Source: Candidatus Aenigmatarchaeota archaeon
Lineage (GTDB): Archaea > Aenigmatarchaeota > Aenigmatarchaeia > Aenigmatarchaeales > JAADFI01
Length of the DNA: 48,448 bases
Direction: 5' to 3'
NCBI GenBank assembly: GCA_015521825.1
Contig: WANL01000001.1
Location: 1 to 48,448, forward strand
The notes under the pieces are model-generated. The model ran no database searches. It saw only the letters and a list, made by a program, of their open reading frames with translations, and had not been told where the DNA came from. Positions 1,109 through 47,905 of this stretch are shown piece after piece. Each line of letters opens with the position of its first letter. Position 1 is the stretch's first letter. The position numbers were made by a program, and so were the translations under genes.

Positions 1109-1422
1109 ACCATCACCCTCCTTATCCCGGCTACTCTGTCCTCCACGACGAGGGGCGGTCCCCTTATGAACCCCTCGGGGTAGAACTTCGAGTACTCCGA
1201 AAGCGCGGAAAGGTAGACCCGCCCGGACTCCGCGGTCATGTTGGAAAGTCCGGTGAGGTCGGAAGAGATGTCGTCGAAAACGAAATTCACCCTCGAGTAG
1301 GCGGTTTTAACCGAGCCAACCTCCAAAGAGTAGGCGGATTCCGAAACGAAGGCGGACGCAACCGCCGAAAGGGACCCTAAGAGCACCAGAATCGTTACCG
1401 TGGCAAAAAGAGCCTTAGCCAT
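1105..1422 (-). CDS. small pilin-like / N-terminal hydrophobic-helix protein, 105 aa
   Basis: N-terminus is MAKALFATVTILVLLGSLSAVA. It overlaps both neighbours (8 nt and 4 nt), so it sits in the same operon. Confidence 0.45.
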   Translation of the reverse strand: MAKALFATVTILVLLGSLSAVASAFVSESAYSLEVGSVKTAYSRVNFVFDDISSDLTGLSNMTAESGRVYLSALSEYSKFYPEGFIRGPPLVVEDRVAGIRRVMV

Positions 1423-24357: not shown

Positions 24358-25941
24358 TCACCTCTCGGACAATCCGAACGCTTCCTGAGGTGTCAGCGCC
24401 CTGTCGAAGATCATAACATCGTCGATCACTGCGGTTCCTGGACTCGTTGCTCCGTCGAAATCACCGACAAACAGCCTCCAGTCTTTGCTCGAAGCCTGCG
24501 GATTTTTGTAGTCGTAGTAAATCTCGCCGCTCTGCTCAATACTTTCGAGCTCCCTTCCGTCGTAGTAAACCGATATATGGGTTCCGTTGTAACTCATCCC
24601 TATCAGGTGCCATTTCCCGTCGTAAAGTCCGGTCGCGTTGGCGTCGATGCATCTGATACCGTTCGTCACTGTGGAGAGGCAAGCACGGATTACATCCTCG
24701 CCCCTACTCTTTGTAACGGCGATGGCCCAGCTTCTCCAGCCGGCCCAGGTGGAATTCGTCGACCTTCTGTTTATTACCCACTTACCGAAGTCCCACGTTT
24801 TATTTATTCTCAGGAAAACGGAAATTTCCTTCTGCGGATCGTACTCCGAAAAGTTATCGACCTGAAGCCAGTCGTCATAGCCGTCGAAACTGATAGCGGT
24901 CCCGCTATACCCTTCGGTCCAGTCCGGGTAGTCCACATCACCATCTATGGTCAAGGGCTGGGCCTGAGTTGCGTGCTCGCAGATGAAATTGTACCAGTTC
25001 CAGCACCTCACATCGTACCAGGTACCTCTGTAGGAGAGGACCGCGCAGTGCTCGGTTCCACCGCCGTTGTTCGGTTCTCCCGTGTTCCAGTTCGTGTAGG
25101 AACTCGTTTCGTTTGGAAGCCACTTCCAGCACCCCGCCGGTTCGTTGGGGCAGCCGTCGGGCCAGCCGTTGTTGTTGCTCAGGTCGTTCCTGTCCTGGTA
25201 GTATCCTATCCACTTCCAGCCTCGACCGGCCAGATTCAGCAGAAACGAATTTTCATTCGAGGAAGAAACAACCGGAATGTAGCCTCCCCTTCTATCACAG
25301 AAGCTCTTCGCTTCTTTCCACCTGGGATATAGCTTCCTGGGATATAGCTTCGGATATAGCTTCAGGGTGTCCATGCACCCCATGTCGATGTACTCGTACC
25401 AGTGGGTGCCGTAGGTTCCGGTTCTGTACACACACTTCCGGTCCTTTAGAAGCAGGTCGATCCTGTTCACGCTGTCCTCGGTGACCAGGCCGCTGCCTTC
25501 GTCGAAACTCCAGAAGGCAATCGCGGATTCGTCGGGTTTTAATCTAACCGACTTCTGAGCAGTAACGGTTCCGGAAGATACCTTTACCGTGTGGGTTCCG
25601 GGAGAAAACCTCCACAGGTCGAGTATCTCCAGCTCTCCTGATTTCGAACTCTGAATGTCCTGCTTTAAGCTAAAGGAAACCGGTGCGCCGTCGACAAATA
25701 CAGAAATTGAATCGTTCGTTATCACGCCGAAGCCGCAGTTTCTGAGGTATATTCTGTTTCCGGAAACCGAATCTATTCTCATGCAGGTGGAGAGCTGCTT
25801 GGTAACCTGCTGAACTTGCTTCTTTCCGGTAGCGGTCAGGCCTCCGGTGGTGGAGGTCGTCCAGGTGTAAATCACGGAAACGAGAGCGATGGTTATGACG
25901 AAAATCATGATAACCGTCAGCACAGCGGACACGCCTTTCAT
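24358..25941 (-). CDS. type IV pilin-like protein fused to a C-type lectin domain (EPN type) and a LamG/Laminin_G_3 domain, 527 aa
   Basis: N-terminus MKGVSAVLTVIMIFVITIALV. CTLD region WKEAKSFCDRRGGYIPVV..WKWIGYYQD..WNTGEPNN..HCAVL..WYDVRC..FICEH. LamG region ISFDGYDDWLQV..GKWHLIGMSYNGTHISVYYDG..IDDVMIFDRALTPQEA. Confidence 0.8.
   Translation of the reverse strand: MKGVSAVLTVIMIFVITIALVSVIYTWTTSTTGGLTATGKKQVQQVTKQLSTCMRIDSVSGNRIYLRNCGFGVITNDSISVFVDGAPVSFSLKQDIQSSKSGELEILDLWRFSPGTHTVKVSSGTVTAQKSVRLKPDESAIAFWSFDEGSGLVTEDSVNRIDLLLKDRKCVYRTGTYGTHWYEYIDMGCMDTLKLYPKLYPRKLYPRWKEAKSFCDRRGGYIPVVSSSNENSFLLNLAGRGWKWIGYYQDRNDLSNNNGWPDGCPNEPAGCWKWLPNETSSYTNWNTGEPNNGGGTEHCAVLSYRGTWYDVRCWNWYNFICEHATQAQPLTIDGDVDYPDWTEGYSGTAISFDGYDDWLQVDNFSEYDPQKEISVFLRINKTWDFGKWVINRRSTNSTWAGWRSWAIAVTKSRGEDVIRACLSTVTNGIRCIDANATGLYDGKWHLIGMSYNGTHISVYYDGRELESIEQSGEIYYDYKNPQASSKDWRLFVGDFDGATSPGTAVIDDVMIFDRALTPQEAFGLSER
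25322..25364 (-). repeat. short tandem repeat (about 13-15-bp unit, 3 copies) encoding KLYP-KLYPR-KLYPR
   Basis: Plus strand reads gggatatagcttcct gggatatagcttc ggatatagcttca, just upstream of the CTLD. The paralog at 42378-44000 has a single LYPDW. Confidence 0.7.
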
Positions 25942-26422: not shown

Positions 26423-27580
26423 ATGGTGCTCGAAACCGGGATAGAAAAGCTGGACAGGCTTCTCGCCGGGAAGCCGGAAAAGAACAGAAAATTTCTGTTT
26501 TTAACAACCCCCGGTATAGACGCACCGGCCTTCGCACAACAGGTCCTTTTCTCCGGGTTAGAAGCCGGGCTGTCAGGTGTCTACCTGGTCTTCAACAAAC
26601 CCCCGGAAGCCGTGAGGGAAACCATGAAAGAGTACCTCTGGGACGTATCTTCGTTCGAGGAATCAGGAAAGCTGACGTTCGTCGACGGGTTCTCTAAACT
26701 CGCGAATTCTGAAACCGGCGAAAAATTCGTGTGCAATCCGAAGAATCCTGACGAACTGATCAGTGCTACCATGGATGCCCTTAAGTCGGTTGGGGAAACG
26801 AAAATAGTGGTGGTTGACGAGATTTCCAACCTCGTCGATCTGATAGGGACCGAAGAAACCGAGCGCTTCATAGAGAAACTCAATTCCGAATCCTCTGTCC
26901 TGGGAATCTTCACCAACTGGCTCTACCCGGAAGAAACCGTGAACTCCGTTAAGGCGGTTTTCGATGAGATCGTCGAACTCAAAGCCGTGGAGGAAAAGGT
27001 CATCCTCAGAAACTACCTTTACATAGAAGGTAGGGCGGTGCCGTTTAAAATCGCGAAACCCGGCGGAATAAACATATACATTCCGAAAATCCTGGTCACC
27101 GGTCCGTACCACGCCGGAAAGAGCACCATAGTCAAAAACCTGAGCGACAGGTCGGTATCGGTGAACCGTCTCGGAACCACTATAGCCCTGGACCACGGCT
27201 ACGTTGAAATGGAAGGGTTCACCTGCGAACTCTTCGGTACCCCGGGCCAGGAAAGATTCGACTTCATCCTTTCCATACTCGCGAAGGACGTTTTCGGGGT
27301 CATCTTGGTCGTGGATTCAACGCTTCCGGAAAGCTTTCCGAGGGCCAAAAACATGCTTTCCAAGGTCAGAGGATACGGAATTCCCTTCGTGGTGATCGCA
27401 AACAAGCAGGATCTCCCGGAGGCCTTACCGCCCGAGGAGGTCAAAAGGCTCCTCGGAGTAGAGGCCCCGGTAATACCGGGTGTGGCGACAGAGGGCAAAG
27501 GTCTGAGGGAAGCCCTGAAGGAGCTGTTCAAACTCATACTGAAAGGTGGTGAGAATGGGAAAGAAGGAGGAAATAGATAA
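26423..27580 (+). CDS. fusion: degenerate KaiC/RecA-like domain (no Walker A) plus MglA/COG2229-type small GTPase
   Basis: N-terminal half TGIEKLDRLLAG..FLFLTTPGIDAPAF aligns with the neighbouring KaiC-like GIPGLDELLEGG..LLSGGPGTGKTTF but lacks GxxGxGKT. IVVVDEIS is kept. C-terminal half has G1 GPYHAGKST, G3 FGTPGQ and G4 NKQD. Confidence 0.75.
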   Translation: MVLETGIEKLDRLLAGKPEKNRKFLFLTTPGIDAPAFAQQVLFSGLEAGLSGVYLVFNKPPEAVRETMKEYLWDVSSFEESGKLTFVDGFSKLANSETGEKFVCNPKNPDELISATMDALKSVGETKIVVVDEISNLVDLIGTEETERFIEKLNSESSVLGIFTNWLYPEETVNSVKAVFDEIVELKAVEEKVILRNYLYIEGRAVPFKIAKPGGINIYIPKILVTGPYHAGKSTIVKNLSDRSVSVNRLGTTIALDHGYVEMEGFTCELFGTPGQERFDFILSILAKDVFGVILVVDSTLPESFPRAKNMLSKVRGYGIPFVVIANKQDLPEALPPEEVKRLLGVEAPVIPGVATEGKGLREALKELFKLILKGGENGKEGGNR

Positions 27581-27923
27581 CATACTGAAAGAGCTGAACC
27601 AGAGCAGTCCCAGCATAAAAGCCTCCCTGCTCGCCAGGGTTGATGGACTGGTGATACACAGCAGGTTGATGGAAGGGGTGGACGGAAGAAGTCTCGCGGC
27701 GATGACGGCGACAATAGTGGGAACGGCCCAGACGATCTCGAAGGAGCTGGAACAGGGGAAGCTGAACCAGGTGATCGTGGAGAGCGAGAACGGAAAGCTC
27801 GTCTCCATAAACGCCGGTAAGCTCGCGATCCTCAGCTGCCTGGTGGATCCGAACGCCAACCTCGGTTTCGTGCTTCTGGAGATGGGGAAGGCCGCGAAAA
27901 AGCTCGAGGAGATCCTGGAGTAA
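27555..27923 (+). CDS. Roadblock/LC7 (MglB-like) domain protein
   Basis: About 120 aa with ..ASLLARVDGLVIHS..AAMTATIVGTAQTISKEL..VIVESENGKLVSINAGK.. The ATG at 27555 follows GGTGGTGA. Confidence 0.75.
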   Translation: MGKKEEIDNILKELNQSSPSIKASLLARVDGLVIHSRLMEGVDGRSLAAMTATIVGTAQTISKELEQGKLNQVIVESENGKLVSINAGKLAILSCLVDPNANLGFVLLEMGKAAKKLEEILE

Positions 27924-27977
27924 AGTATTTAAAACGTTCGCCCCAAACTTTATGGTAGTAAAGTTAGGGGGGCGAAC

Positions 27978-28346
27978 ATGGTTTCGGAATCCGAACTCAG
28001 GGAGATTCTCGAAGAGTTCGTGAAATCCGCAGGAGTCATAGGCGCGGCCATAGTTTCGAACGAGGGTTTGATGATGTGCTCCCTGTTACCCGAAGACTCG
28101 GATCCCAACCTCGTGGCCGCTATGTCGGCTTCCCTGTTCGGAACTTCCAGGAAGGTCGTGGAGGAACTGAATCTGGGCCCGCTCCAGCAGGCCATAGTCG
28201 AGGCAAGGGAAGGCAAGCTGGTTGCCTGCTCCGCCGGTAAGTACGGAATTCTGGTCTCCCTTGTGCCGCACACGACCAACATCGGCCTTGTGATCCTGGA
28301 ACTCGGGAAAACCAGCGAGAGGATCAGAAGACTTCTGGAAGAGTAA
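27978..28346 (+). CDS. Roadblock/LC7 (MglB-like) domain protein
   Basis: 122 aa with ..GVIGAAIVSNEGLMMCS..AAMSASLFGTSRKVVEEL..AIVEAREGKLVACSAGK.. It is a paralog of the previous gene. Confidence 0.75.
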   Translation: MVSESELREILEEFVKSAGVIGAAIVSNEGLMMCSLLPEDSDPNLVAAMSASLFGTSRKVVEELNLGPLQQAIVEAREGKLVACSAGKYGILVSLVPHTTNIGLVILELGKTSERIRRLLEE

Positions 28347-29027
28347 TCAGATGAAGACCTCTTCCTTCGAAAAGACCTCGATTCCTCCGGGGCCGATTCT
28401 TACCGGGTGGAGTCTGGTGGAGTGGTTCGTGCCCCTCATCTTTAAGATTGAAAGCACCCTTGTGTACATGTTGCCTTCCATGACTCTCCTGAGAACGACG
28501 ATCCCGTCCGACACGAACTCCTCGACCCCGTAGGGTGAAACCGAGTCAGAGCCTTCCGGAATCTCGCAGGAAATTATAGAGGTGGCTCCTGTTTTCTTCA
28601 GTTGCTTCCCCAGTTCCACGAGACCCTTCCTTATCTCCAGGGGGTGCTCCAGGAACATTCCGAGAATCGTGGCCGGATCTATGACTATCCTCCTGGCGTT
28701 CAGCCGGAGAACGTTCTCCTCGATCACGGACCTGAGACTTGAAAAATCGTAAAGGTCCAGGCGGACCACGTCCATTTTTCCGGACTTTATCTGCTTTCCG
28801 ACCTTCCAGCCGAACCTTTCCGAGTTTCTCACGATCTGCTCCGGCTCCTCCTCGAGGGAGATGAAAACACCGGGCTCGCCGGAAAGTGATCCGTGGTAAA
28901 TGTAGGAAAGGCCGAAGGTTGTTTTCCCCGTGCCCGGACCTCCCGACAGGAGGATTAGGGAACCGGAAGGAAAGCCGCCTTCCAAAAGCTCGTCCAGGCC
29001 GGGAATCCCGGTGGAAACCCTTTCCAT
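28347..29027 (-). CDS. single-domain KaiC-like RecA-superfamily ATPase
   Basis: Contains GIPGLDELLEGGFPSGSLILLSGGPGTGKTTFGLSY, Walker B RIVIDP and the C-terminal ILKMRGTNHS..HPVRIGPGGIEV. Confidence 0.85.
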   Translation of the reverse strand: MERVSTGIPGLDELLEGGFPSGSLILLSGGPGTGKTTFGLSYIYHGSLSGEPGVFISLEEEPEQIVRNSERFGWKVGKQIKSGKMDVVRLDLYDFSSLRSVIEENVLRLNARRIVIDPATILGMFLEHPLEIRKGLVELGKQLKKTGATSIISCEIPEGSDSVSPYGVEEFVSDGIVVLRRVMEGNMYTRVLSILKMRGTNHSTRLHPVRIGPGGIEVFSKEEVFI

Positions 29028-29061
29028 AAAATTTTTATAAGACCGGGCGAATAAATAGTTT

Positions 29062-29409
29062 ATGATGAATCTTTTCGAGCTGATCCTGGTTTACTCTTCC
29101 ATAGGGTTTGCCGTGCTTTCCGTGGTTTTCATCTACCTCTCCCTTAATCTAACCAGGGAAGCGGTCAGAAAGAAAATGCTGGCCTCGATATTCAACCTCA
29201 GATTCAGGCAGTTCGAAAGGTTCTGGAAGTGGGTCTTCCTCCTTCCGTTTATAATAATAATCTCGAGGTCGGTCGAACTGATAAAGGAGATCCAGGGCCT
29301 CGAGTTCATAAACGGGGCCTACAGGATTTTCGACTTCATAATAATATTCATAATTTTCGTCCTCACGATATCCTACTACTTTATCCTGAAAACCTACATG
29401 AAGTCTTAA
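29062..29409 (+). CDS. small three-TM membrane protein, function unknown
   Basis: 115-aa hydrophobic ORF, AT-richer than its surroundings. Confidence 0.4.
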   Translation: MMNLFELILVYSSIGFAVLSVVFIYLSLNLTREAVRKKMLASIFNLRFRQFERFWKWVFLLPFIIIISRSVELIKEIQGLEFINGAYRIFDFIIIFIIFVLTISYYFILKTYMKS

Positions 29410-30203
29410 AGGAGCAGCGTGAGGAGAAGGGCCAGCGGGAACACCGGGCCGTACCTTACCCCGTCCCGAACTGTAACGAACTTCCTGACTCTTTTAAGTC
29501 TCGATACCTCTTCCTCGGTCAGACCTTTTATGTATTTCTTGAACACACCGGCTTCCGGAACGTCCTCACCTATCACATCGCCTTTCTTGAGCCTCGAGAC
29601 CGGTATCCGCCTGTAAAATCCGTAAGCCTCGACCGCCCTGGCGAAGCGAATCGCAAATGGCGACAGGGCCAGGAGGATCCCTACCGCGAGGAACAGCGGA
29701 CTTTCAAGGACGAAGGATGCGAGGCCGAAAGCGGTAAGAAACACCGAAGCTGTGAAGAGATCCTTTCCCCGATTCCTCCTGACCGAAGCTCCGAACTCCC
29801 TCCAGACCCTGGGGTTTTTTCTGGTAACCACAGCGGAATAGACCAGGGAGTAGATACCGCCGACCAGGAAAACATTCAGGAAAAATAGCGGTGTGAACAG
29901 CGGTGTCAGGAAGCCTACGGGCAGGAGAACGCCGATGGCGACGAGGAGCTCGCCGTCCCCGCCTCCCCACGAGCCCGTGTAGTACATCAGAAGACCGAAC
30001 GTCAGGAAAAGGAGTCCGGTACCGGCCGAAAGCAGGAAGGGAAGGGGATCGCCCAGGAGGAAGGACTCGTAAGCGTGGATCCCGAGGCCGAAAATTATCA
30101 TTCCTATCGCGAGGGCATCCAGCATGTCGCTCGTTTTCAGATCGTAAAGGGCGCAGGCCGTACTCCCACCGAGGGCAACGGCCAGCTTGACGGCTTCGAA
30201 CAT
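29406..30203 (-). CDS. A24-family archaeal prepilin/preflagellin peptidase (FlaK/PibD/EppA-like) with C-terminal extension
   Basis: Start re-picked to MFEAVKLAV (ATG at 30203). First catalytic Asp context is ALYDLKTSD and the second is WGGGDGELL (GxGD). Multi-TM. The extra C-terminal part is RIPVSRLKKGDVIGEDV.. Confidence 0.75.
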   Translation of the reverse strand: MFEAVKLAVALGGSTACALYDLKTSDMLDALAIGMIIFGLGIHAYESFLLGDPLPFLLSAGTGLLFLTFGLLMYYTGSWGGGDGELLVAIGVLLPVGFLTPLFTPLFFLNVFLVGGIYSLVYSAVVTRKNPRVWREFGASVRRNRGKDLFTASVFLTAFGLASFVLESPLFLAVGILLALSPFAIRFARAVEAYGFYRRIPVSRLKKGDVIGEDVPEAGVFKKYIKGLTEEEVSRLKRVRKFVTVRDGVRYGPVFPLALLLTLLL

Positions 30204-30207
30204 ATAA

Positions 30208-30948
30208 ATGAAAAGGATTCCTGTTAAATTTAAATATTTCCCGGAACCTCTAAATATTGTGCACGTGGCTGTGATTCTGGACGGAAACAGAAGATTCGCC
30301 AGAAGATTGATGCAAAAGCCGTGGAAGGGCCACGAGTGGGGGGCCAAAAAGGTCAGGTCGCTTCTCGAATGGGGAAGGGAAAAGGGTATCAAAAGGTTCA
30401 CGCTCTACTCCCTGTCGATAGAGAATATTAAAAAAAGACCGAAGAGGGAGCTCGACTACCTTTTCAGGCTTTTCGAAAGGGAATTCCGCGACATCCTGAA
30501 GCCGGACCACGAGGTTCACCGGCACCGGATAAGAATCAGGGTGATAGGAAGGAAGGAACTTCTCCCCGAAACCCTGAGGGACCTGATAGATCGGGTGGAG
30601 TCCGAGACCGAAAGTTACGACGGTTACGAGCTGGTACTCGCCATAGCCTACGGGGGTCAGCAGGAAATAACCGACGCCGCGAAAAAACTGGCTGAAGCCG
30701 TGAAAAACGGTTCGGTTGACCCGGAAAAAATCGACGAAGCCGAGTTCTCCAGGCATCTCTACGCCGCGGACTGTCCGGACATAATTATAAGAACCGGTGG
30801 GGAAAAGAGGCTGAGTAACTTTTTGCTGTGGCAGAGCGCCTACTCCGAGCTTTTCTTCGTGGACAAGATGTGGCCGGAATTCGAGAAGGAGGACTTCGAA
30901 CGAATCCTGGAGGAATTCAGGAAGAGGCAGAGGAGGTTCGGCGGCTGA
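30208..30948 (+). CDS. uppS: undecaprenyl (cis-prenyl) diphosphate synthase
   Basis: Contains HVAVILDGNRRFA, and later AYGGQQEI and RTGGEKRLSNFLLWQSAYSELFF. An alternative GTG start lies at 30259. Confidence 0.9.
   Translation: MKRIPVKFKYFPEPLNIVHVAVILDGNRRFARRLMQKPWKGHEWGAKKVRSLLEWGREKGIKRFTLYSLSIENIKKRPKRELDYLFRLFEREFRDILKPDHEVHRHRIRIRVIGRKELLPETLRDLIDRVESETESYDGYELVLAIAYGGQQEITDAAKKLAEAVKNGSVDPEKIDEAEFSRHLYAADCPDIIIRTGGEKRLSNFLLWQSAYSELFFVDKMWPEFEKEDFERILEEFRKRQRRFGG
30226..30239. promoter_or_regulatory. shared AT-rich TATA-like element between divergent peptidase and uppS genes
   Basis: aaatttaaatattt lies about 23-36 nt from the ATG at 30203 (minus) and about 20-33 nt from the in-frame GTG at 30259 (plus). 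This suggests uppS may really start at 30259. Confidence 0.35.
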
Positions 30949-33592: not shown

Positions 33593-34051
33593 TTAAGAGC
33601 AGGTTAGACCTTCTTCAACCGCACCCAGAGGACCGGCGATTCTCAGCGTCCTCGTGACCTTCGTGTCCCCCGGAGCAGTCTGATAGTTTATGTTCTTGGT
33701 CTCCCCGGTCTTGATTCCGACCGCTGAGAGGCTCGGTGTCGTCTTTGCGGTTATGTCCTCGCCGTCAAGGAACGCCCGAAGGTCTCCTGGTTCGATGTCA
33801 ACGGTTCCGATGTTCCTCAGTGTAAAGTTGATGGCATTGACGTTCGAAACGTTAGTGCACTTACTATTGATTATGATGACCTGCTTTCCCGCCGACTGCT
33901 GGAGCTGCTGTGCCTGCTGACTTCCTCCGGCCTGCATCCCTGTGACCATAGTGGTACTCCAGGCCCAGAGTATTCCCACCAGCGCCACCGCAATCACTAC
34001 GATCATTATCACTGCGATCACTGTCGATATACCTTTGCTGCTTCCCTTCAA
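33593..34051 (-). CDS. archaeal type IV pilin (Pilin_N-type class III signal peptide), 152 aa
   Basis: TTG start 4-5 nt after GAGGTGA. N-terminus is KGSSKGISTVIAVIMIVVIAVALVGIL, followed by a beta-sandwich-like region similar to the stalk of the pilin-lectin proteins. Confidence 0.7.
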   Translation of the reverse strand: MKGSSKGISTVIAVIMIVVIAVALVGILWAWSTTMVTGMQAGGSQQAQQLQQSAGKQVIIINSKCTNVSNVNAINFTLRNIGTVDIEPGDLRAFLDGEDITAKTTPSLSAVGIKTGETKNINYQTAPGDTKVTRTLRIAGPLGAVEEGLTCS

Positions 34052-34211: not shown

Positions 34212-34613
34212 TTATTTCAGGGCTGTCATCAGCGTCTTCACTCCGGTGCAGTTCGTGACGACCCTTACCTGGCTGACATCGGCCCTGTTAACCGGGAGGG
34301 GTTCGGAAATCACGGTTCCCAGAGTACCCGGAGCCACCGAAGAATTCAGAACATCCCTTAGGTGCAGAACGGTTGCGTTCTGGAGCACGACCTCGAACAC
34401 GAATCCCCCGAGCGGCGCACCGCTCACCTCCACGACCGCCTTTATAGAACCGGAATCGTACTTCGGAAAGCCGGATATGAACCTTATCGAAGCATCGCAG
34501 TTCGGTCTTTCCGGGGCCGGAACCTTGGAGGTAAGGGCGGCGAGAAAGGCGGCGAGAATCATGGTGAGAATTATCAAAAACACGGTCATTCCGAGAGGGC
34601 TCATCCCCTTCAT
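34212..34613 (-). CDS. pilin-like protein (class III signal peptide)
   Basis: ATG at 34613 gives MKGMSPLGMTVFLIILTMILAAFLAAL. Confidence 0.55.
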   Translation of the reverse strand: MKGMSPLGMTVFLIILTMILAAFLAALTSKVPAPERPNCDASIRFISGFPKYDSGSIKAVVEVSGAPLGGFVFEVVLQNATVLHLRDVLNSSVAPGTLGTVISEPLPVNRADVSQVRVVTNCTGVKTLMTALK

Positions 34614-34654
34614 CGAAAGCACCTAAAAATTATCTTTTTCGGCGCCATATAAAG

Positions 34655-36255: not shown

Positions 36256-37473
36256 CTATTTCTTTCTCCTTCCTCTCTTTAAAATCTTTGCCGGGTACTG
36301 AACCGGATTCTTTATCCCGCGGCAGACGTCGTCCGGTCTGCAGATTCCGAGGGAGCCGATGAAAAGTTCGTTGGAACACCCGGGCGGCAGAAGTCTCCTG
36401 CTCTGCCTGAGGTGCCACTTGAGCTGGGTTCTGATGGTGTTTTCCCTGAGAGGGGGTCTGTTTCTCGAGTTCCAGTTTTCGAGAGCCGACTCTATTTCCT
36501 TGGCAGACCAGCCGGAAGATCTTAAGAACGTAACGAGGGTGAAGATAGACCTCTTCCTTCCGTCCGAAAGCCCGGAGAGAATGTTCTTGATACACGGGGG
36601 GAACGCGCTTTCCGGCACCTTCACCCCGGCGGTGTGCCTGACCCCGGTCTTCGGTTTTTTCTTCGGCAGGAAGGCCGAGGCCTCGTCCACAAGGGTAGAG
36701 GCGTCCCCGGACCCGGAAAATTCGAGAGAGAGATCGGCGTTCTCGGGTCTGGCCGATTCCGGATCGAAGGAGAGCGGATCCCTGACCGGAACGGAAACGA
36801 GCAGAGTCTTGTGGTGTATTGTGTAGGGTGCCCTGAACAGGTGCCGGGAACCCCAGTTCGACTCTATTTCTACCGCCTCGAAGGCGGAGAATTTTTCAAA
36901 CCCTCCTATCGCTCTGGAAAGGGAAGCGTAGCCGCCTTCGAAGGAAGCGAGCCTCTCCAGGATTTCTTTATCCACCTTAGACTTAACGAATTCAACTATG
37001 GCCCTCGGAAGCTCTGGGTACAGAGACGCCGTGGGTCTGAGGTCCACGGACTCCGGAAAGCAGGAAAAAGGGATGAAAATGTGAAAGCCCCTTCTCCCGG
37101 AAAACTTGACCCCGGCCTTTATTCCGAAATCCGAGAGGAACTCGAGGACGGCGGAGGCCGCGATCTTGGAGTGCTCGAGACTGAACTTCGCGTCTATGTC
37201 GATGAGAAGGTCCCATCCGATCCTCAGTTCATCGAGTTCCTCGGCCTTCATCTCGCTTTTCAGCCTCAGCGGGTCCTTCCAGAGCTCGACTGAACAGTGG
37301 AAGCTGATCACCCCGGACTCCACGCGCTGAATCAGGTCCCCGGGGTATACAAGAGTGTCCGGCCTTTTTAAGAAGGAGCCGTCAGGAAGCGAGCACGCCA
37401 CCTCCCGGTTAGCCGCGAATTCCACTATCCTTCTCGCGACATCCTTCCGCGAATAGTAATCCTTCGGATCCAT
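36256..37473 (-). CDS. priS: DNA primase small subunit PriS fused to a PriL-CTD-like Fe-S helical domain
   Basis: Catalytic core WDLLIDIDAKF, SGRRGFHIFIP. The C-terminal 115 aa or so read FPPCIKNILSGL..RSIFTLVTFLRSSGWS..PPGCS..GICRPDDVCRGIKNPVQY, with four Cys. Confidence 0.8.
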   Translation of the reverse strand: MDPKDYYSRKDVARRIVEFAANREVACSLPDGSFLKRPDTLVYPGDLIQRVESGVISFHCSVELWKDPLRLKSEMKAEELDELRIGWDLLIDIDAKFSLEHSKIAASAVLEFLSDFGIKAGVKFSGRRGFHIFIPFSCFPESVDLRPTASLYPELPRAIVEFVKSKVDKEILERLASFEGGYASLSRAIGGFEKFSAFEAVEIESNWGSRHLFRAPYTIHHKTLLVSVPVRDPLSFDPESARPENADLSLEFSGSGDASTLVDEASAFLPKKKPKTGVRHTAGVKVPESAFPPCIKNILSGLSDGRKRSIFTLVTFLRSSGWSAKEIESALENWNSRNRPPLRENTIRTQLKWHLRQSRRLLPPGCSNELFIGSLGICRPDDVCRGIKNPVQYPAKILKRGRRKK

Positions 37474-41763: not shown

Positions 41764-42339
41764 TCACCTGACGGTTATCTTTATTACCGTGGTGTTCTCG
41801 CTGGACCTGTACCTCACGAGTTCAAGGCTCTTTCCTTTCATGGTGGCGTTGGGCGAGAACTGAATCATGAGGAATCCCTTCTGAACGAGGCTGTAGGTCT
41901 CCTCTCCGGTAGGTGTCCTGACCACCACATCGCCTGAAAGAAGGATCGCATCGGATTCCGGGTACATGAACCTCATCGAATACCTGGTTACCCCGTCGGC
42001 CTCACAGGATTCCCACAGTCTTTTACCGGAGTCGATAGGTCTCCATGGGTATCCGGAGCACACAGGGTACCTGGAAATTATGGTGTAGTAGATTCCGTCC
42101 GGTCTGACCTCGAGGTCCCCGCGGCTGACCGAAAAGACACACCTGTTTCCGGCTCCCGTCCTGGCCGTCTCCAGAATTTTCTGGGCGCATTTAGTGAACT
42201 CGGACTTCACCTTGTCTATCTCGGAAGCGTCGAAGCCGCCCTGAAGGGTGTCGTATGCCCAGGGAGCCGCCACAATCGCGAGGGAAACCAGAACGGAGAA
42301 AATGAGAACCGCCTGCAGGACCGTGGACTGTGCCTTCAT
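41764..42339 (-). CDS. class III signal-peptide (minor-pilin-like) protein, 191 aa
   Basis: N-terminus MKAQSTVLQAVLIFSVLVSLAIVAAP has the same MKAQS leader as the gene at 428-1108. It ends 4 nt before the argS start. Confidence 0.55.
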   Translation of the reverse strand: MKAQSTVLQAVLIFSVLVSLAIVAAPWAYDTLQGGFDASEIDKVKSEFTKCAQKILETARTGAGNRCVFSVSRGDLEVRPDGIYYTIISRYPVCSGYPWRPIDSGKRLWESCEADGVTRYSMRFMYPESDAILLSGDVVVRTPTGEETYSLVQKGFLMIQFSPNATMKGKSLELVRYRSSENTTVIKITVR

Positions 42340-42377: not shown

Positions 42378-44000
42378 TCACTCGAGCGAAACCATTTCCT
42401 TCGGATCGACAGCCTCGGAGAGTACCCTCACGAAGTCGAGAACCATCGGAACCTGACCGAACTGGAACTCCTTCACGTAATACGTGTTGCCGTTATCTAC
42501 GACCGGCTTCGAGTAGTTTATGGGCCCGGTCTGCGGAACCGAACCGATCTTATTACCGTCGAAGTAGAGGGAAATCTCGCTTCCGTCGTAGGTCAGGCCC
42601 AGGAGGTGGAACTTCCCGTCATTTAGGTTAATACTCCCGTCTGCGCACCTGTACTCCGAAGTGTAAACACAGGCCTTGGCCAGGGTTCCGTCACCGTAAA
42701 CCTCGATACCGTAAGCCGGGTTCAGGGAATGAGCCGCCCTGTAAGCGATTCTGACGCCCTCCCACCAGTATCCGGTCTTCTTGACCCGGACGAACAGGGA
42801 AACCCGGTTCGGGGGATCGTGATCCTCGGTTATAACGGTCTTTCCACCCGGCCCAGCCTCGGTTTTGAAAAACCCGGCCGAGACAATATCGTCGTAGCCG
42901 GAGAATTTCATTACCCCGTTTTCAATGACCGGGAGCCAGGGGTACCTCAGCTCGGGTCGATCCGGCTTCTGATCGTACTCGCAGATGAATCCCATACCGT
43001 AGGTGCAGTCGGCATCCGTGAAGTTATCGTTTTTCAATCCGCAGTTGGCCGGCGGAAAACCGACCCCGATCAACCGCTCAGCGGCCGAATCAACGTTATC
43101 GGGTTGTCCGCTTTCCCAGTTGAAGTAGGACGACGGTTCGACCGAAAGCCACTTCCAGTCTCCGGCGGGCTCGTTCGCCGAACCGCTCGGAACGGAATCG
43201 GAGTATGTGAGGTCGTTAGGATCCTGGTACAGACCGATCCAGAGACCGTTGGCCCAGTAGGGCATGGAACTGAGTTCGTCCCAGGAGGAGAACACGGCCA
43301 GGTAGCCTCCGTCGTTTTCGCAGAACTTCTTGGCCGAGACCCAGTCCGGATACAGGTTCGGATCTATTTCGTCCAGGCAGCCGTAGGGATACACGATGTA
43401 GTAGCTCGAACCGTAGTTCAGGGGGTCGAGACTCGAAGACCAGCAGGGTCCATCGACTGCGCGGGCGTCAATGCCGTTAACGGTGTCGTAAACGTAGTAG
43501 CGGTAACCGACCACATTTCCCTGAAAGTCGAGCTCGGGAACGGCCGTCCAGTTGTCGTCGAACTCGAAAAAGGCGACCGAGGAGTCCGAAGGCTTTATCT
43601 TCACGAATCTCTGGCTAACGAAGGATCCGGCCGAAATTGTCATGTCGTGATCCCCGACTCCGAAGTCGTAGAGGTTCGTCAGCTCGGCGTAACCGACCTG
43701 GTTGGGCGGAATGTCCCTGCTGAGAGAGTAATCCACGGGCTTTCCGTCTATGAAGATGTTAAGGGTTCCGTTTCTCACGACTCCGGGGCCGCAGTTTCTC
43801 AGATACACCCTGTTTTTCGCTACCTGGTCTATCCTTAGACAGTACATCTGCTCGGCCTGGGTAGTTATCCTCTCCCCGGATTCCCGCATGGTCTTTCCGG
43901 TAACTCCGAAGATCCAGTTTGCCAGAAGGTAGAGCAGGGCAATTGTTACGATTATCACAAGCGTGACGGCAACCGCGGACGAAATTCCCTTCGCGCTCAC
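42378..44000 (-). CDS. type IV pilin-like protein fused to a C-type lectin domain (QPD type) and a LamG/Laminin_G_3 domain, 540 aa
   Basis: GTG start. N-terminus SAKGISSAVAVTLVIIVTIALLYLL. CTLD region WVSAKKFCENDGGYLAVFSS..LWIGLYQD..WESGQPDN..FTDADC..FICEY. LamG region KFSGYDD..GKFHLLGLTYDGSEISLYFDG. Confidence 0.8.
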   Translation of the reverse strand: MSAKGISSAVAVTLVIIVTIALLYLLANWIFGVTGKTMRESGERITTQAEQMYCLRIDQVAKNRVYLRNCGPGVVRNGTLNIFIDGKPVDYSLSRDIPPNQVGYAELTNLYDFGVGDHDMTISAGSFVSQRFVKIKPSDSSVAFFEFDDNWTAVPELDFQGNVVGYRYYVYDTVNGIDARAVDGPCWSSSLDPLNYGSSYYIVYPYGCLDEIDPNLYPDWVSAKKFCENDGGYLAVFSSWDELSSMPYWANGLWIGLYQDPNDLTYSDSVPSGSANEPAGDWKWLSVEPSSYFNWESGQPDNVDSAAERLIGVGFPPANCGLKNDNFTDADCTYGMGFICEYDQKPDRPELRYPWLPVIENGVMKFSGYDDIVSAGFFKTEAGPGGKTVITEDHDPPNRVSLFVRVKKTGYWWEGVRIAYRAAHSLNPAYGIEVYGDGTLAKACVYTSEYRCADGSINLNDGKFHLLGLTYDGSEISLYFDGNKIGSVPQTGPINYSKPVVDNGNTYYVKEFQFGQVPMVLDFVRVLSEAVDPKEMVSLE

Positions 44001-44033
44001 ACTATAGTTTTACACACTAAGTTACTTAAAGGT

Positions 44034-46208
44034 TTACCTTGTGAGAATGTAGGTCTCGGCGTAGCCTCTGTCGGTCACAACCGCTACCTTGTACCTTTCG
44101 TTCTTTTCGAGGGAGGCGTTTACCGTGAGCGTGAAGCCTCCGTCCGGACCGGTGAGGGTATAATTCCTGTAGAGCCAGGGCGCGTCCTCGGTGCAGTAGA
44201 CAACATCCGGCTTACAGACGAAGAGGGAAACCGGAATGTTCGGAACCGGTGTCATGTTTGAAGAAAGGGCGTAGGCGGAAACCGAAATTATGTAAGGATA
44301 AACGTTCGGAACTATTCTAAAGGAAAGGATGGAGGTTCCGAAAGTGTCGGGATAGCCCGTTGTCTTGACTATTCTCACGTAATAGGTTCCGGGGTCTGCG
44401 GTGAAGGTGAGGGAGGCGTTGCTCCTCGTGTAGTTAACGAGCTCCCAGGTGGAATTGTCCCCGTCAGTGTCTACGAAAATCGTGTAGTTGTCGATGTACT
44501 CGAGCGTGGCCTCCATTTCGGCGGAATCGATGTAAAACGCACCGTTGAATCCGTTGTAGCTCAGGTCGAACCTTATTCTGACCTCGGAGTCCGGTACGCT
44601 AAAGGTCGAGGGATCGAGGTCTATTACAACCGGTCGGAATTCCTTGGAGGAGTTTACAGAAGTTACCTGCCCGGCTTTTGTCCCGTTGACAAAAACGCTT
44701 ATCGAAGTTACGTTGGTCAAAAATCCTGTGCCGTTGTCCGAAAGGAACAGCGTTACTCTGGCGCTCTTCACCCTCACCTGAGAATCCGGATACGCCTTAG
44801 CGACCGGGTTGAAGGGAATCTCGATTCCGTTGAACCGAACCGGCTGGGACATCTCGAAGTACGCGAGCTGGCCCGGTCTGGCCGCTACGGACCAAGCGGT
44901 TCTGACCTCAAGCACACCCCTTCCGGAAACATCGTCCCTAATGCTTTTCATCCCGAGAGTCGACGGGTCCTTAAAACTTTCGTGAATGTTAACGGCAGCG
45001 AACCTCCACTTTTTATCCGCGTAAAGCGGGGTGGAATATCTCTTTTTGTCCGGGTAAAAGTAGGGGTTCCCGAAAAGTTTGAACGCTGAAACCGGGGATT
45101 CCTTCGGAGAGGAGGTCAGGTTCCTGGTGGACGGAAGCGGTGAAATCGTTACGGTCACGTTGGAAGGCACCGTTATATTGTAAACTATAACCTTCGAGCA
45201 CTCGTCTGCACAGGACGGATCGAAACAGTCTATCCTTCCGTCGAAATTGTCGTCTAGTCCGTCCCTGCAGTTCTTTTCCTTCCTGTAGCACCCGACGGTA
45301 TTGTAAACACTCCCTCCCGGAGTCACCGCCCCACACTCCGCGGTGTACCACTCAACACCGAACGGTTTTTTACAACAGTAAGCGTAATTCGGATCGTTCG
45401 GATCCACCGCACAACCTTCGCCATCGGGGCAGGTCTCAGTAGGACTGTAAGATATTCTTACTATTTTCCATTTATTATTCCAGTAGAAGCTGGTGTAACC
45501 TACTCCCGGAGAAGACTGGCTTCCGCCGACAGCGCAGACAGTCCCATCTGGCTCGCCCTCGCAGGCTCTTTCCCTCGGTTTACACTTCCCGTTGACCCAG
45601 GCGCAGGCAGCGGTCTGAAGACACTGCTCGTAAGTGAAATCCGAGCAGTTCACGCGATAGATCCGGAACATTTCTGACTCGGTACACGGAAGCCACTGGT
45701 ACTCAATCCGACCGTCTTCAATTCCGCACGGATAATTTGGATTATAATTCTGCCACCAGTAATCATTGTAATCTGTAATTATATAAACGGGACAATCATT
45801 GTCTCCGGTCCCGAAAACAGTACAGGACTGAGTCACGAAAGTTTTATCCAACCCCCCGTACCTCGCCGTTGTTTTATAAGAAAGCATATTAGCCGGCGCG
45901 CACGGAGCTCCCATTACTTTGTCGATCTCGTATTCACAGTTAGGATCTCTGTGAAAGGATGTTTCAGCTCCCATGGGTTTTTGTAACAAGTAATGAAGGT
46001 AATTTACCTTATTGGGGTCTGTATCCACACACGGATTGGTATACTCACAACACTCTCCGTACGTACAACTGCTAGTAATGTAAGCGCTTCCGTAGTTATC
46101 GTAGCAGTAACCGGAAGTAACCCAGTCACAAACTACGGCATACGAACCTTCGGTGAGTAGGAACAGACCGGTTCCGATGGCAGCCACCAGGAAAATCAAA
46201 GACCTCAT
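44034..46208 (-). CDS. secreted 724-aa protein: Cys-rich N-terminal half, beta-rich C-terminal half
   Basis: Signal peptide MRSLIFLVAAIGTGLFLLTEGSYA. Dozens of Cys lie in the first 340 aa or so, including CRDGLDDNFDGRIDCFDPSC (MopE/TSP3-like metal-binding pattern). Many N-x-S/T sequons. The C-terminus is CarboxypepD_reg-like (YTLTGPDGGFTLTV..YKVAVV). Confidence 0.7.
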   Translation of the reverse strand: MRSLIFLVAAIGTGLFLLTEGSYAVVCDWVTSGYCYDNYGSAYITSSCTYGECCEYTNPCVDTDPNKVNYLHYLLQKPMGAETSFHRDPNCEYEIDKVMGAPCAPANMLSYKTTARYGGLDKTFVTQSCTVFGTGDNDCPVYIITDYNDYWWQNYNPNYPCGIEDGRIEYQWLPCTESEMFRIYRVNCSDFTYEQCLQTAACAWVNGKCKPRERACEGEPDGTVCAVGGSQSSPGVGYTSFYWNNKWKIVRISYSPTETCPDGEGCAVDPNDPNYAYCCKKPFGVEWYTAECGAVTPGGSVYNTVGCYRKEKNCRDGLDDNFDGRIDCFDPSCADECSKVIVYNITVPSNVTVTISPLPSTRNLTSSPKESPVSAFKLFGNPYFYPDKKRYSTPLYADKKWRFAAVNIHESFKDPSTLGMKSIRDDVSGRGVLEVRTAWSVAARPGQLAYFEMSQPVRFNGIEIPFNPVAKAYPDSQVRVKSARVTLFLSDNGTGFLTNVTSISVFVNGTKAGQVTSVNSSKEFRPVVIDLDPSTFSVPDSEVRIRFDLSYNGFNGAFYIDSAEMEATLEYIDNYTIFVDTDGDNSTWELVNYTRSNASLTFTADPGTYYVRIVKTTGYPDTFGTSILSFRIVPNVYPYIISVSAYALSSNMTPVPNIPVSLFVCKPDVVYCTEDAPWLYRNYTLTGPDGGFTLTVNASLEKNERYKVAVVTDRGYAETYILTR

Positions 46209-47905
46209 ATGACCACCCAGGTTTCAGTATCCTTTTTTATTTCTCCCAGCTCCTGAATCTTTCCGGTAGGCGGGATGCAGTAGTAGTATTCCGGCACGCA
46301 CTTCGAAGCCCCGGGAGTGTAAGCAGCGTACGGGCACCATTTACAGCCCTGAGTGTTATCACATACCCTCTTTTTCTCTTCGTCCGTGGTCAGACCTTTT
46401 TCACATGCAGCGCAGTCCCACGCTCCACAACCCCGATCCGGCGGACAAGCCCCGGCCTCCTTACAGCCTATTTGAAAGCCGCACCAGTCGCAGGTGGAGA
46501 AACTCTCGCAGGTCGTCGGGTCCCAGTAATTCTGGCAGCAGTCTTCCGGACAATTCTCCGGAGTCTCGCCATAAGCAGTCTCGCAGATGCCGTTGGGAGT
46601 CCCGGTGAGAGTTCCGGTAGCCGGGTCGTAGCAGGATCCGCACGGCGTGGGCTTACAGGTTCCGGAACACCAGTAACAGCCGGCGTTCTCACAGTCCGTC
46701 TGGGTCTGGCAGTTAACGCAGCTGGAAGCCGTACAGTCGGAAGGAACCGTGCCCGTGGGCTGGCACTTAACGGTTAAACCGGCCGGAAGGGTACACGACT
46801 CCAGCCAGGACTCGCAGTTTATCTTTCTGTCCCGGTAGTAACTCCACCCGTTCGTTTTCGAAGGTCTGCAGGTGAACCTGGTCGGGTCGCTGTTGGTGCA
46901 GGGCGAATCGTCCGTTCCGGTCATGCAGTACAGCCCGTCCGCGCACTCGTCGTTACACTGGCAGACGTCTCCCTCGGTCTTCGCGAACCCGAGGACCTTG
47001 AGGCAGGGATCGCACTTTTCCGTGTCTATCGCGTCCTCGTAACTGCAGATCGGAACGCACTTACCGTTTTCGCACTTGAAATCCGGCGGGCACACGAGCT
47101 TTCCGTAGGAGCACTGCGAATCCCTGGAAGGACAGAAGGCCTCGAGAACGGTCGTGTTGTCGACGCAGTAGTCCGAGATGGTTTGAAGGACTTTGTCTCC
47201 CTCTCCGTACTCGCAGGTACCGGAGGAAAACTTAGTGTCCGGATACAGGCCAGGAACATCTGGAGAATCACTATCGTAGCACCACGGCCACGGTGGGGGT
47301 TCCGACTTTTTACAGAAAAACTTGTGGGTGGAGTTGTAAGATATTTCGTAACCTTCCGGGCATCCGACCTCGACATTAAACCATACCGAAGCGTTTACAG
47401 ACTTTACATTCTTGGGATTTACACAGACGTCCGAGTAAAAAGACCAAGAAGCATCGATTAGCAAAACGGTTCCGGAAGCACCTTTTAAATTATAGGTATA
47501 ATCCGTTGCTGTCCACCTTTCCCATCCTGAAATTAACCCACACCGTTCATTCAGGGGCTGTGGATTTGAAAGACATTCGTAAGTCACCCTGCTCTTAACC
47601 TGTTCATTAACTCCGTTGTTATCCGTGCAGGTAGTTATTCTATGACCAACACCCGTGATTGCGCACCATCCTACGTTATTCTCGTCCCAGTCGCACGGAA
47701 CTTCTACGAGCAATTGACGGGTAAGCGTTGTCTCCTCAGCTGTATCTATAACGTAACAGGTAGCGCCAACGAGAGTTGGATCCGTCGGGGCTCTTTCAAG
47801 AGGGCAGTCGCTCTCCAGACGAACTTGAAGGGTGGTCCCGAAAGCGGGTGGAAACAGTAGTAAAAACCCTATCAGAATTAAAATCAAAGGGGTACCCCTG
47901 TTCAT
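46205..47905 (-). CDS. secreted 566-aa protein, about 10% cysteine, with PSI-like Cys patterns
   Basis: Signal peptide MNRGTPLILILIGFLLLFPPAFG. About 56 Cys by hand count. Contains CTASSCVNCQTQTDCENAGCYWCSGTC and CAACEKG..CDNTQGCKWC (C..C..C...CxWC). ATGA overlap with the downstream 724-aa gene. Confidence 0.7.
   Translation of the reverse strand: MNRGTPLILILIGFLLLFPPAFGTTLQVRLESDCPLERAPTDPTLVGATCYVIDTAEETTLTRQLLVEVPCDWDENNVGWCAITGVGHRITTCTDNNGVNEQVKSRVTYECLSNPQPLNERCGLISGWERWTATDYTYNLKGASGTVLLIDASWSFYSDVCVNPKNVKSVNASVWFNVEVGCPEGYEISYNSTHKFFCKKSEPPPWPWCYDSDSPDVPGLYPDTKFSSGTCEYGEGDKVLQTISDYCVDNTTVLEAFCPSRDSQCSYGKLVCPPDFKCENGKCVPICSYEDAIDTEKCDPCLKVLGFAKTEGDVCQCNDECADGLYCMTGTDDSPCTNSDPTRFTCRPSKTNGWSYYRDRKINCESWLESCTLPAGLTVKCQPTGTVPSDCTASSCVNCQTQTDCENAGCYWCSGTCKPTPCGSCYDPATGTLTGTPNGICETAYGETPENCPEDCCQNYWDPTTCESFSTCDWCGFQIGCKEAGACPPDRGCGAWDCAACEKGLTTDEEKKRVCDNTQGCKWCPYAAYTPGASKCVPEYYYCIPPTGKIQELGEIKKDTETWVVI

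Follow-up and report, generated by a model that had tools for sequence, protein, structure and literature searches.

How DPANN archaea find and hold their hosts has been described as an unresolved question (e.g., PMC11329633), and a single gene of a Candidatus Aenigmatarchaeota archaeon gives it a concrete form: may an archaeal type IV pilin carry a lectin head? The gene is localized at positions 42378-44000 (minus strand) of a stretch of 48,448 nucleotides (nt) (assembly GCA_015521825.1, contig WANL01000001.1, positions 1 to 48,448), which is called the window below. In an earlier reading of the window (hereafter, the original prediction), the product of this open reading frame (ORF) was described as a prepilin N-terminus fused to a C-type lectin-like domain (CTLD) and, behind it, a LamG domain. 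We consider that this product, the target of the present analysis, is probably (at a rough probability of 0.6) a surface lectin or adhesin with the modular build of an archaeal type IV pilin-like protein, whose CTLD seems to be inserted in a LamG loop. The gene and its parts are as follows:

42378-44000, minus strand: whole gene of the putative 540-amino acid (aa) modular pilin-like lectin protein, with a GTG start and the stop codon at 42378-42380
44022-44030, minus strand: TATA-box-like TTTAAGTAA, read from the sequence, 22-30 nt upstream of the GTG start
43986-44000, minus strand: leader MSAKG within the class III signal peptide (residues 1-5), with a predicted prepilin-peptidase cut after Gly5
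43851-43985, minus strand: hydrophobic and then amphipathic N-terminal helix (residues 6-50), putative equivalent of pilin alpha-1 (from AlphaFold2 (AF2), UpsA, and Pilin_N)
43581-43850, minus strand: stalk in the form of a beta sandwich (residues 51-140), in which C54 and C70 are invariant and the motif C.RIDQVAKNRVYLRNCG occurs
43446-43580, minus strand: first LamG strands (residues 141-185), VAFFEFDD...YVYDTVNGIDARAVDG, aligning with FDEGSG..D.S.N.NG.L of CTLD-less relatives
42966-43445, minus strand: predicted CTLD (residues 186-345; from Lectin_C, sequence matches in PDB, AF2 with Foldseek, and cysteine columns)
43098-43106, minus strand: QPD motif (residues 299-301) of the putative primary Ca2+/sugar site; FTD (residues 327-329) stands in the place of WND, and an insertion of 11-13 residues separates the two
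42381-42965, minus strand: linker and main Laminin_G_3/concanavalin A-like body (residues 346-540) with invariant C444 and C452

The ORF does exist as a 540-aa minus-strand frame with a GTG start, and it is conserved in relatives: full-length orthologues with 98%, 89%, and about 40% identity have the same start and the same architecture.

Pilin-like N-terminal module

The N-terminus of the target reads MSAKG|ISSAVAVTLVIIVTIALLYLL and, judging from this sequence pattern, it carries a class III signal peptide. All reading frames of the window were scanned with a FlaFind-like pattern, i.e., [KRDE][GA][ALIFQMVED][ILMVTAS]x3 followed by a hydrophobic run, and only four ORFs matched it: the target, 33593-34051, 1415-2071 (218 aa), and 24358-25941 (527 aa). 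The short basic leader with a KG| prepilin-type site, pointed out in the original prediction, is therefore a feature that few ORFs of the window possess, and the start M[KR]G[VI]S... was found in all members of the family. Two of the matching ORFs and a peptidase gene recur throughout the argument:

24358-25941, minus strand: paralogue of the target, 527 aa, with the same architecture, EPN in the place of QPD, and an extra cysteine pair (C264, C271) in a long loop
33593-34051, minus strand: small pilin of 152 aa from the same N-terminal family (Arch_flagellin E 1.5e-4; class III pattern; hhalign 98.4%)
29406-30203, minus strand: A24 (FlaK/PibD-type) prepilin peptidase, a candidate processing enzyme; the mechanical ORF extends to 30401

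The paralogue, absent from the earlier reading of the window, is 32% identical to the target from end to end (BLASTP E 6e-89) and shows matches to Lectin_C (51.4 bits), Laminin_G_3 (35.4 bits), and Pilin_N (E 0.0017).

In the full-length AF2 model of the target, built on an alignment of 20 sequences, a helix spans residues 8-50 (with a low predicted local distance difference test score, pLDDT, for residues 32-50) and is followed by a confident beta sandwich at residues 51-140 (pLDDT 79-93). Similarity to recognised pilins was found at several levels. The NCBIfam model UpsA, describing a Sulfolobus pilin, matches residues 4-100 of the target weakly and below threshold (E 0.009), and Pfam Pilin_N (PF07790) matches five of the nine N-termini of the family (best E 1.9e-5). 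The first 150 residues of the target are similar to the small pilin (BLASTP E 5e-4), encoded 8 kb away, and the profile of nine family N-termini aligns with this pilin in hhalign with a probability of 98.4% (E 4e-15) over 115 columns, which comprise the helix and the LRN.G...F.DG beta region. The stalk that the original prediction assigned to both proteins is thus indeed common to them, and homology of the N-terminal module of the target to recognised pilins is supported at the sequence level. The small pilin is also a candidate for the major subunit of a filament that would carry the lectin pilins.

The gene originally named as that of the prepilin peptidase does encode one: Peptidase_A24 was found at 29406-30401 with 34.5 bits against a gathering threshold of 26.5. 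The sequence contains two aspartate motifs, ALYDLKT and GGGDGEL, which we take to be catalytic.

Three further small proteins of the window have N-termini of a similar kind. The 191-aa product of 41764-42339 (minus strand), encoded 38 nt downstream of the target, begins with the signal-peptide-like or class III-like MKAQSTVLQAVLIFSVLV... and has a weak match to DUF7289 (E 0.048); it was considered as a pilin partner of the target and rejected, as homology was unsupported (hhalign probability 3.9%). The above-mentioned 218-aa protein of 1415-2071 (minus strand), with the class III-type N-terminus MKG|FAILLDAALSLTVAAVAVSSLV and without a Pfam match, may be a further pilin-like protein. Near the small pilin, 34212-34622 (minus strand; 136 aa) encodes a protein starting with MLSMKGMSPLGMTVFLIILTMILAAFLAAL, which resembles a short pilin-like protein, has no Pfam match, and lies outside the strict pattern.

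C-type lectin-like and LamG domains

All the CTLD landmarks listed in the original prediction (W..A..FC, WIGL, W.W, Q-P-D, D..C, and FICE) are present in the translation, i.e., WVSAKKFC (with C227), WIGL at 254-257, WKW at 282-284, QPD at 299-301, DADC (with C332), and FICE (with C340). Pfam Lectin_C (PF00059) matches residues 220-341 above its threshold (26.9 bits vs. a gathering value of 22.6, E 8.8e-6), covering positions 5-106 of the 107 in the profile. A phmmer comparison of the target with PDB sequences retrieved C-type lectins exclusively, of which collectin placenta 1/SRCL was the best (E 5e-4) and mannose receptor 2, CD23, ASGR2, and MGL came next.

In the full-length AF2 model, the CTLD loop of residues 248-335 had a pLDDT below 50, and Foldseek analysis of the full model reported the LamG domain only. 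Because of this poor stretch, a domain-only alignment was made from the archaeal CTLDs and the nearest bacterial and metagenomic CTLDs of a profile search. The resulting CTLD-only model (pLDDT 71; predicted template-modelling score 0.75; low confidence in the loop 303-325) was compared with PDB by Foldseek, and its best 50 matches were all CTLD carbohydrate-recognition domains, each with a probability of 1.00 (including Mincle, Langerin, SRCL, DCAR2, CD23, ASGR, and MGL). The target-normalised template-modelling scores were 0.58-0.76, with isolated domains at 0.66-0.76 and the lowest values belonging to longer Langerin trimer chains. The family CTLD profile recovered bacterial and animal CTLDs with E values down to 8e-20. 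On these models, residues 186-345 are predicted to adopt a true CTLD fold, and the hidden Markov model (HMM) and fold-prediction check asked for with the original prediction yielded no different one.

The cysteines gave a more complex picture. In all ten members of the two subfamilies to which the target belongs, six cysteines of the CTLD (C186, C208, C227, C320, C332, and C340) are invariant, as are two in the stalk (C54 and C70) and two in LamG (C444 and C452). In the wider CTLD alignment, C227 falls into the canonical C1 column, C340 into C4, and C332 into C3, whereas the canonical C2 column is occupied by L310 in the target, and C320 lies ten residues downstream, within the subfamily-specific insertion of 11-13 residues. 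Across this alignment C1 and C4 are retained or lost together, and so are C2 and C3, with the target and its 98% orthologue as the sole exceptions; this joint loss fits the canonical disulfide pairing. Of the four to six CTLD cysteines expected originally, all six are therefore conserved in the two subfamilies, but C320 is off the canonical column.

A similar mixture was observed in the Ca2+/sugar site. The site-2 ligands Q299, D301, and D329 are clear in the target, and E308 falls into the column of the canonical Glu in one of two alignments but not in the other. The asparagine of WND is replaced by Thr328 (FTD), while its Asp is kept as D329. The orthologue with 89% identity has EPD for QPD and FAD for FTD. 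The paralogue reads EPN...EHC...WYD and has four of the five canonical site-2 ligands, and another relative (P0013) displays the full canonical set, EPN...ENC...WND. Among the CTLD-bearing members, only P0014 (EPS) and the mentioned close orthologue of the target (EPD) have neither QPD nor EPN. A QPD/EPN switch among paralogues is the classic signature of galactose-type versus mannose-type specificity in CTLDs. The segment 299-335 is, in this small sample, the most divergent part of the target: it is 78% identical to the 89% orthologue, compared with 86-96% in the other large segments (and 70% in the 10-residue C-terminal tail of the CTLD), and 19-31% identical to the paralogues, compared with about 25-62% elsewhere. 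Thus, as regards the residues of the Ca2+ site, QPD is kept, but WND is FTD and the site has acquired an insertion. As it is only partly canonical, lectin activity of this copy is plausible, though not assured.

The C-terminal region had been recognised originally as Laminin_G_3-like, and this assignment stands: Pfam Laminin_G_3 (PF13385) matches residues 400-535 (36.2 bits vs. a gathering value of 27.6), the AF2 pLDDT is mostly 80-98 in about residues 390-540, and the Foldseek list is dominated by concanavalin A-like/LamG-type domains (E down to 7e-8), e.g., the trans-sialidase lectin domain, PAPP-A LamG, collagen IX NC4, and BoNT (botulinum toxin) Hcn. The LamG stretch GKFHLLGLTYDGSEISLYFDG is present in the translation of the target.

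The order of the two domains, in turn, probably has to be revised. In the CTLD-less relatives P0017 (354 aa) and P0018 (360 aa), the same pilin-stalk part leads directly into a continuous LamG sequence, ...FDEGSG..D.S.N.NG.L...W.DGK.G.AL.FDG.... The target segment VAFFEFDD...YDTVNGIDARAVDG (residues 141-185) aligns with the first part of this stretch, and its second part is matched by ...NGVMKFSGYDD (from about residue 360), with the CTLD situated between these two segments; a hairpin insertion specific to the target's subfamily (about residues 151-171) occurs within the first LamG segment. Other family members have different inserts at the same LamG point, and an insert of about 220 residues at that site distinguishes P0025 (581 aa) from its syntenic orthologue P0018 (360 aa). 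Based on the alignment with CTLD-less relatives and on synteny, the CTLD seems to have been inserted into a LamG loop and not placed upstream of LamG; both domains of the original prediction are real, but their succession appears to be a nesting. When residues 185-346 were deleted and the sequence was rescanned with Pfam, it was seen that the Laminin_G_3 profile leaves the first LamG strands uncovered in CTLD-less relatives as well, in which its match begins at the ...FDG motif.

The syntenic pilin-LamG orthologues that differ by this module of about 220 residues, at L006 (10001-11746) and L007 (9178-10260), both lie between TsaD-like and beta-CASP nuclease genes; the larger of the two loci also gains a gene for a 1,652-aa LamG/PA14/cellulase protein.

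Pilin-LamG family, known systems, and proposed role

Close homologues of the target were sought by a word-indexed search of 5.8 billion proteins, which yielded 11 sequences in three clusters. A search with the paralogue added P0013, P0014 (from a Micrarchaeota metagenome-assembled genome, MAG), and P0016 (from a Woesearchaeota MAG), the last of which has a class III peptide and a CTLD-in-LamG head without the stalk. Many CTLD-less pilin-LamG proteins were also found, among them a protein of an Aenigmarchaeota MAG and another with the label flagellin-like. The size of the family was estimated with HMMER, using the N-terminal profile against 1.84 billion cluster representatives; 2,343 representatives were found at an E value cut-off of 1e-3, 781 at 1e-10, and 62 at 1e-30, most of the matches being 340-370 aa long. 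The genes of the family stand alone amid housekeeping genes, outside pilus operons.

Modules were counted with Pfam in the 119 top representatives outside the CTLD group. Laminin_G_3 was present in 87, Toxin_R_bind_N in 12, Pentaxin in four, SUEL_Lectin in three, and CBM_4_9 in one, whereas Lectin_C was found in none of the 119, and a custom CTLD HMM detected no CTLD among 140 representatives. Since LamG, SUEL lectin, pentraxin, carbohydrate-binding module, and toxin receptor-binding domains all occur on these representatives, the pilin-stalk scaffold seems to display carbohydrate-binding modules. A scan for the CTLD-pilin pattern revealed at least two archaeal loci and one short bacterial match in 185,579 GTDB species genomes and at least one locus in JGI metagenomes; these are minimum numbers, as either scan relied on one peptide pattern. 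By these searches, the pilin-stalk-LamG scaffold is a large, abundant, and uncharacterised family with named DPANN members, and its CTLD version is rare.

The CTLDs nearest to those of the family are mostly metagenomic sequences without a source name, the best-scoring ones included. The named ones belong mostly to bacterial lectin-like proteins (of Labilithrix, Dolichospermum, and Aquisphaera), with a whale-shark lectin in addition. Three CTLDs from outside the family and without a taxon (P0033, P0039, and P0044) share the extended GLYQD(P/L)xD...EP.G.WKW loop with the archaeal pilin CTLDs, which hints at a distinct, probably prokaryotic CTLD subfamily, from which the archaeal cassette may derive.

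The closest functional parallel is offered by bacteria. PilC of Streptococcus sanguinis combines a pilin, an immunoglobulin-like module, and a concanavalin A-like module and is a proven glycan-binding lectin (PMC9934059). A census of pilins with the IPR012902 motif revealed more than 1,200 modular pilins, with pilin plus PF13385 among the commonest architectures (PMC8179133), and its Dataset S1 contains three bacterial proteins in which a prepilin motif is combined with a C-type lectin domain (IPR012902-IPR001304). The term "archaea" is absent from that paper, and the census did not cover archaea. Like these proteins, the target has a class III signal peptide and a pilin module with a grafted carbohydrate-binding module of the concanavalin A-like/LamG type (PF13385), and display at the filament tip would be expected for both. 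Unlike them, its pilin module is of the archaeal type, i.e., Pilin_N/archaellin-like, with a [KR]G|hydrophobic cut (KG|ISS) and no Glu5, and its CTLD is apparently nested in LamG rather than appended. Owing to this archaeal type of N-terminus, the target would be a functional analogue and not a member of the bacterial group, and it is best read as what corresponds in archaea to the modular pilins of bacteria, e.g., S. sanguinis PilC.

With archaeal adhesion pilins, UpsA, and Pilin_N pilins, the target shares the class III peptide, the long helix, the beta-sandwich globular part, the stand-alone gene, and an A24 peptidase encoded in the genome. With a length of about 130-160 aa and no added domains, those pilins are unlike the target with its roughly 400 extra residues that form two lectin-type domains, and its matches to UpsA and Pilin_N are sub-threshold. 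Lectin domains are not mentioned in a census of archaeal type IV pili (PMC4858521), and Ups pili are reported to recognise S-layer glycans (PMC7064770). In the Sulfolobus bindosome, a class III signal peptide occurs on functional non-pilin sugar-binding proteins (PMC3047682). The likeness lies in an archaeal class III signal peptide that puts a carbohydrate-binding protein at the cell surface; the bindosome proteins, however, are substrate-binding proteins of ATP-binding cassette (ABC) transporters, encoded together with these transporters and without a pilin-like stalk, while the target contains lectin folds, and no uptake transporter is encoded near it.

As regards the CTLD itself, animal CTLDs (Langerin, Mincle, SRCL/CL-P1, CD23, and ASGR) and bacterial PF00059 lectin-like proteins share with the target the predicted fold, WIGL, WxW, QPD/EPN, and the C1-C4/C2-C3 framework as far as C1, C3, and C4 are concerned. 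Differences from the animal domains are the extended GLYQDPxDL...EP.G.WKW loop, common to a few prokaryotic CTLDs, an N-terminal cysteine pair with non-canonical spacing, and, in the target, the displaced C2, FTD for WND, and the insertion in the site. C-type lectin-fold (CLec) variable proteins diversified by diversity-generating retroelements (DGRs) occur in DPANN archaea (PMC4372165) and likewise place a CLec-type fold in surface or ligand-binding proteins. They belong to a divergent CLec/FGE-like branch and are accompanied by a reverse transcriptase and a template repeat, whereas the target represents a different branch. A DGR at the target was considered and rejected: the window contains no template/variable repeat pair involving 42378-44000, and no reverse transcriptase was found among the window ORFs scanned.

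We found no published description of an archaeal type IV pilin with a C-type lectin or of a DPANN pilin with LamG. DPANN papers mention secreted LamG proteins and possible pili in passing (PMC9563170, PMC11329633), and in one of them thin filaments, possibly pili, are reported and no adhesin is named (PMC11329633). The original prediction had regarded a CTLD on a pilin as unusual. This applies to the CTLD form, which is rare in the family (0/119), but lectin pilins are established in bacteria, three prepilin proteins with a C-type lectin domain have been catalogued there, and the archaeal scaffold is abundant. The target thus does not establish a new category: it represents the modular-pilin idea in an archaeal form, on an abundant DPANN pilin-LamG scaffold, to which the CTLD apparently nested in the LamG head is the rare addition.

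The proposed mechanism starts with the A24 peptidase, which would remove MSAKG by cleaving the target after Gly5. The N-terminal helix would then either polymerise into a type IV pilus-like filament or anchor the protein at the membrane. If polymerised, the target would likely be a minor or tip subunit, because its head of about 400 residues is bulky. The head, composed of LamG and the CTLD, may bind glycans of another cell or surface, with the QPD copy (the target) and the EPN copy (24358-25941) possibly providing two different specificities. The named relatives of the target family are DPANN archaea (Micrarchaeota, Woesearchaeota, and Aenigmarchaeota). To our knowledge, all cultivated DPANN members attach to host archaea. 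Considering these two facts, adhesion to, or recognition of, glycans of a host or substrate seems to be the most likely role. A bolder proposal, which we offer only tentatively, is that the two paralogous lectin pilins are host-recognition determinants of a DPANN episymbiont, placed at pilus tips and reading host N-glycans or glycolipids by a galactose-type (QPD) and a mannose/N-acetylglucosamine-type (EPN) head, and that new host specificities evolve at the LamG cassette site, at which CTLD, SUEL lectin, pentraxin, and other modules have been seen.

Several points weigh against a pilin-like adhesin. Among the main ORFs of the 48-kb window, which is part of the genome only, there is neither a pilus-assembly ATPase (PilB/ArlI-type) nor a platform gene (PilC/TadC/ArlJ-type), and neither was seen beside the loci of the relatives. 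The N-terminus of the target alone gave no Pfam Pilin_N match at E 0.05, and with about 11 close homologues in three clusters the conservation statistics are thin. Moreover, the Ca2+/sugar site is incomplete, with Asn changed to Thr (Ala in the 89% orthologue), Leu in the C2 column, and an insertion of 11-13 residues, where AF2 confidence is below 50. The lack of an assembly ATPase or platform gene near the target or its relatives, together with the solitary position of the family genes amid housekeeping genes, would suit a bindosome-like display, in which the class III peptide serves export and membrane anchoring or builds a short pseudopilus, no extended pilus is formed, and the protein is not a fibre adhesin but an envelope lectin that captures polysaccharide or glycoconjugate, either to scavenge nutrients or to organise the envelope. 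We regard this as unlikely: a globular stalk with homology to the small pilin forms part of the N-terminal region of the target, the gene has no uptake ABC transporter beside it (those ABC genes that occur at 21130-22925 belong to the ABC-2/DrrA type), and the missing linkage is weak evidence, because stand-alone pilin genes are common in archaea and often unlinked to assembly genes (PMC4858521).

The state of the Ca2+ site also leaves some room for a CTLD that is not a Ca2+-dependent sugar binder and works as a protein-binding domain or a structural scaffold, so that glycan binding, if any, would fall to LamG. Such an explanation, which we hold to be possible but doubtful, is consistent with the fact that only three or four of the five canonical site-2 ligands can be placed (Q299, D301, D329, and possibly E308), with FTD for WND in the target and FAD in the close orthologue, with the lineage-specific insertion and displaced cysteine in the site, and with the wider family, in which LamG is constant and the CTLD optional. 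It fits less well with the retention of QPD/EPN in the CTLD-bearing members other than P0014 and one orthologue, with the complete site of P0013 and the four of five ligands in the paralogue, and with the Gal-type/Man-type switch described above. The bindosome-like display and a CTLD without sugar binding are not mutually exclusive. Quite another matter is whether chance produced the CTLD motifs in a beta-rich domain of some other kind, or whether the ORF is spurious. The single-sequence Lectin_C score of the target, just 4 bits above threshold, and the unconfident residues 248-335 of the full-length AF2 model could be quoted in favour of it, but the paralogue reaches 51 bits, the family profile reaches CTLDs at E 8e-20, the best 50 matches of the domain-only model are all CTLDs, and the gene is conserved at 98%, 89%, and about 40% identity; the chance reading of the CTLD is effectively refuted.

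If the adhesin reading is right, a family of about 2,300 representatives that combine a pilin, a lectin-type head, and an exchangeable module would supply concrete adhesin candidates for the DPANN archaea. The QPD/EPN pair of paralogues within one genome forms a natural comparison, by which the lectin hypothesis is directly testable. The modular-pilin principle is experimentally established in bacteria only, and the target suggests its extension to archaeal type IV filaments. It would also present a canonical animal-style CTLD in an archaeon, nested in another lectin fold, whose nearest named relatives outside the family are, by the profile search, bacterial.

Gene neighbourhood and further observations

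The gene content of the window is archaeal and comprises GatD, GatE, Hjc, a fused small/large primase, a wyosine radical S-adenosylmethionine enzyme, SecY, the proteasome alpha subunit, a phosphoenolpyruvate-utilising enzyme, a KaiC-like ATPase, FtsY, and one tRNA-Pro. The TATA-like TTTAAGTAA upstream of the target is located in the 33-nt gap between the stop codon of the upstream gene and the GTG, which suggests a separate promoter for the target gene and an mRNA that is leaderless or nearly so; the paralogue has the TATA-like TTTATATT at a similar distance upstream. In archaeal promoters, the position of the TATA box relative to the start follows a distance rule.

Directly upstream of the target, two genes on the minus strand (44034-46208, 724 aa, and 46205-47905, 566 aa) encode large, cysteine-rich secreted proteins, of which the former weakly matches an acidic double-disulfide repeat family; otherwise the pair is without family matches. 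They stand next to the target gene in very close relatives only. A conserved operon with these upstream genes was considered as a feature of the family and rejected, since the genes of subfamily 2 and of the other relatives lie amid unrelated housekeeping genes.

Beside the peptidase gene, a cluster at 26423-29027 comprises a KaiC-like ATPase (28347-29027), a fusion of a KaiC-like domain with a small Arf/Ras-type GTPase (26423-27580), a gene of the Roadblock/LC7 type (27546-27923; Pfam Robl_LC7), and an ORF of 122 aa that looks similar to it (27978-28346). The cluster resembles a polarity or regulatory module of the MglA/MglB type. An imperfect inverted repeat of 40 nt flanks 28307-29130.

Among the remaining ORFs, 15748-17490 (plus strand; 580 aa) has about 45% GC compared with 55% in the window and is without a family match; at its 5' end, tandem repeats of 60 nt and 117 nt encode ...AQWKAENSTIKAKVVRI... 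units, which are followed by a charged, coiled-coil-like region. The fused primase is encoded by 36256-37473 (minus strand; 405 aa), with matches to DNA_primase_S and DNA_primase_lrg/PriCT. Finally, the 552-aa ORF at 3420-5078 (minus strand) joins an Asn_synthase/PP-loop-like part to an HhH-GPD glycosylase, and may either represent a fusion or have resulted from mechanical ORF calling that ran two genes together.

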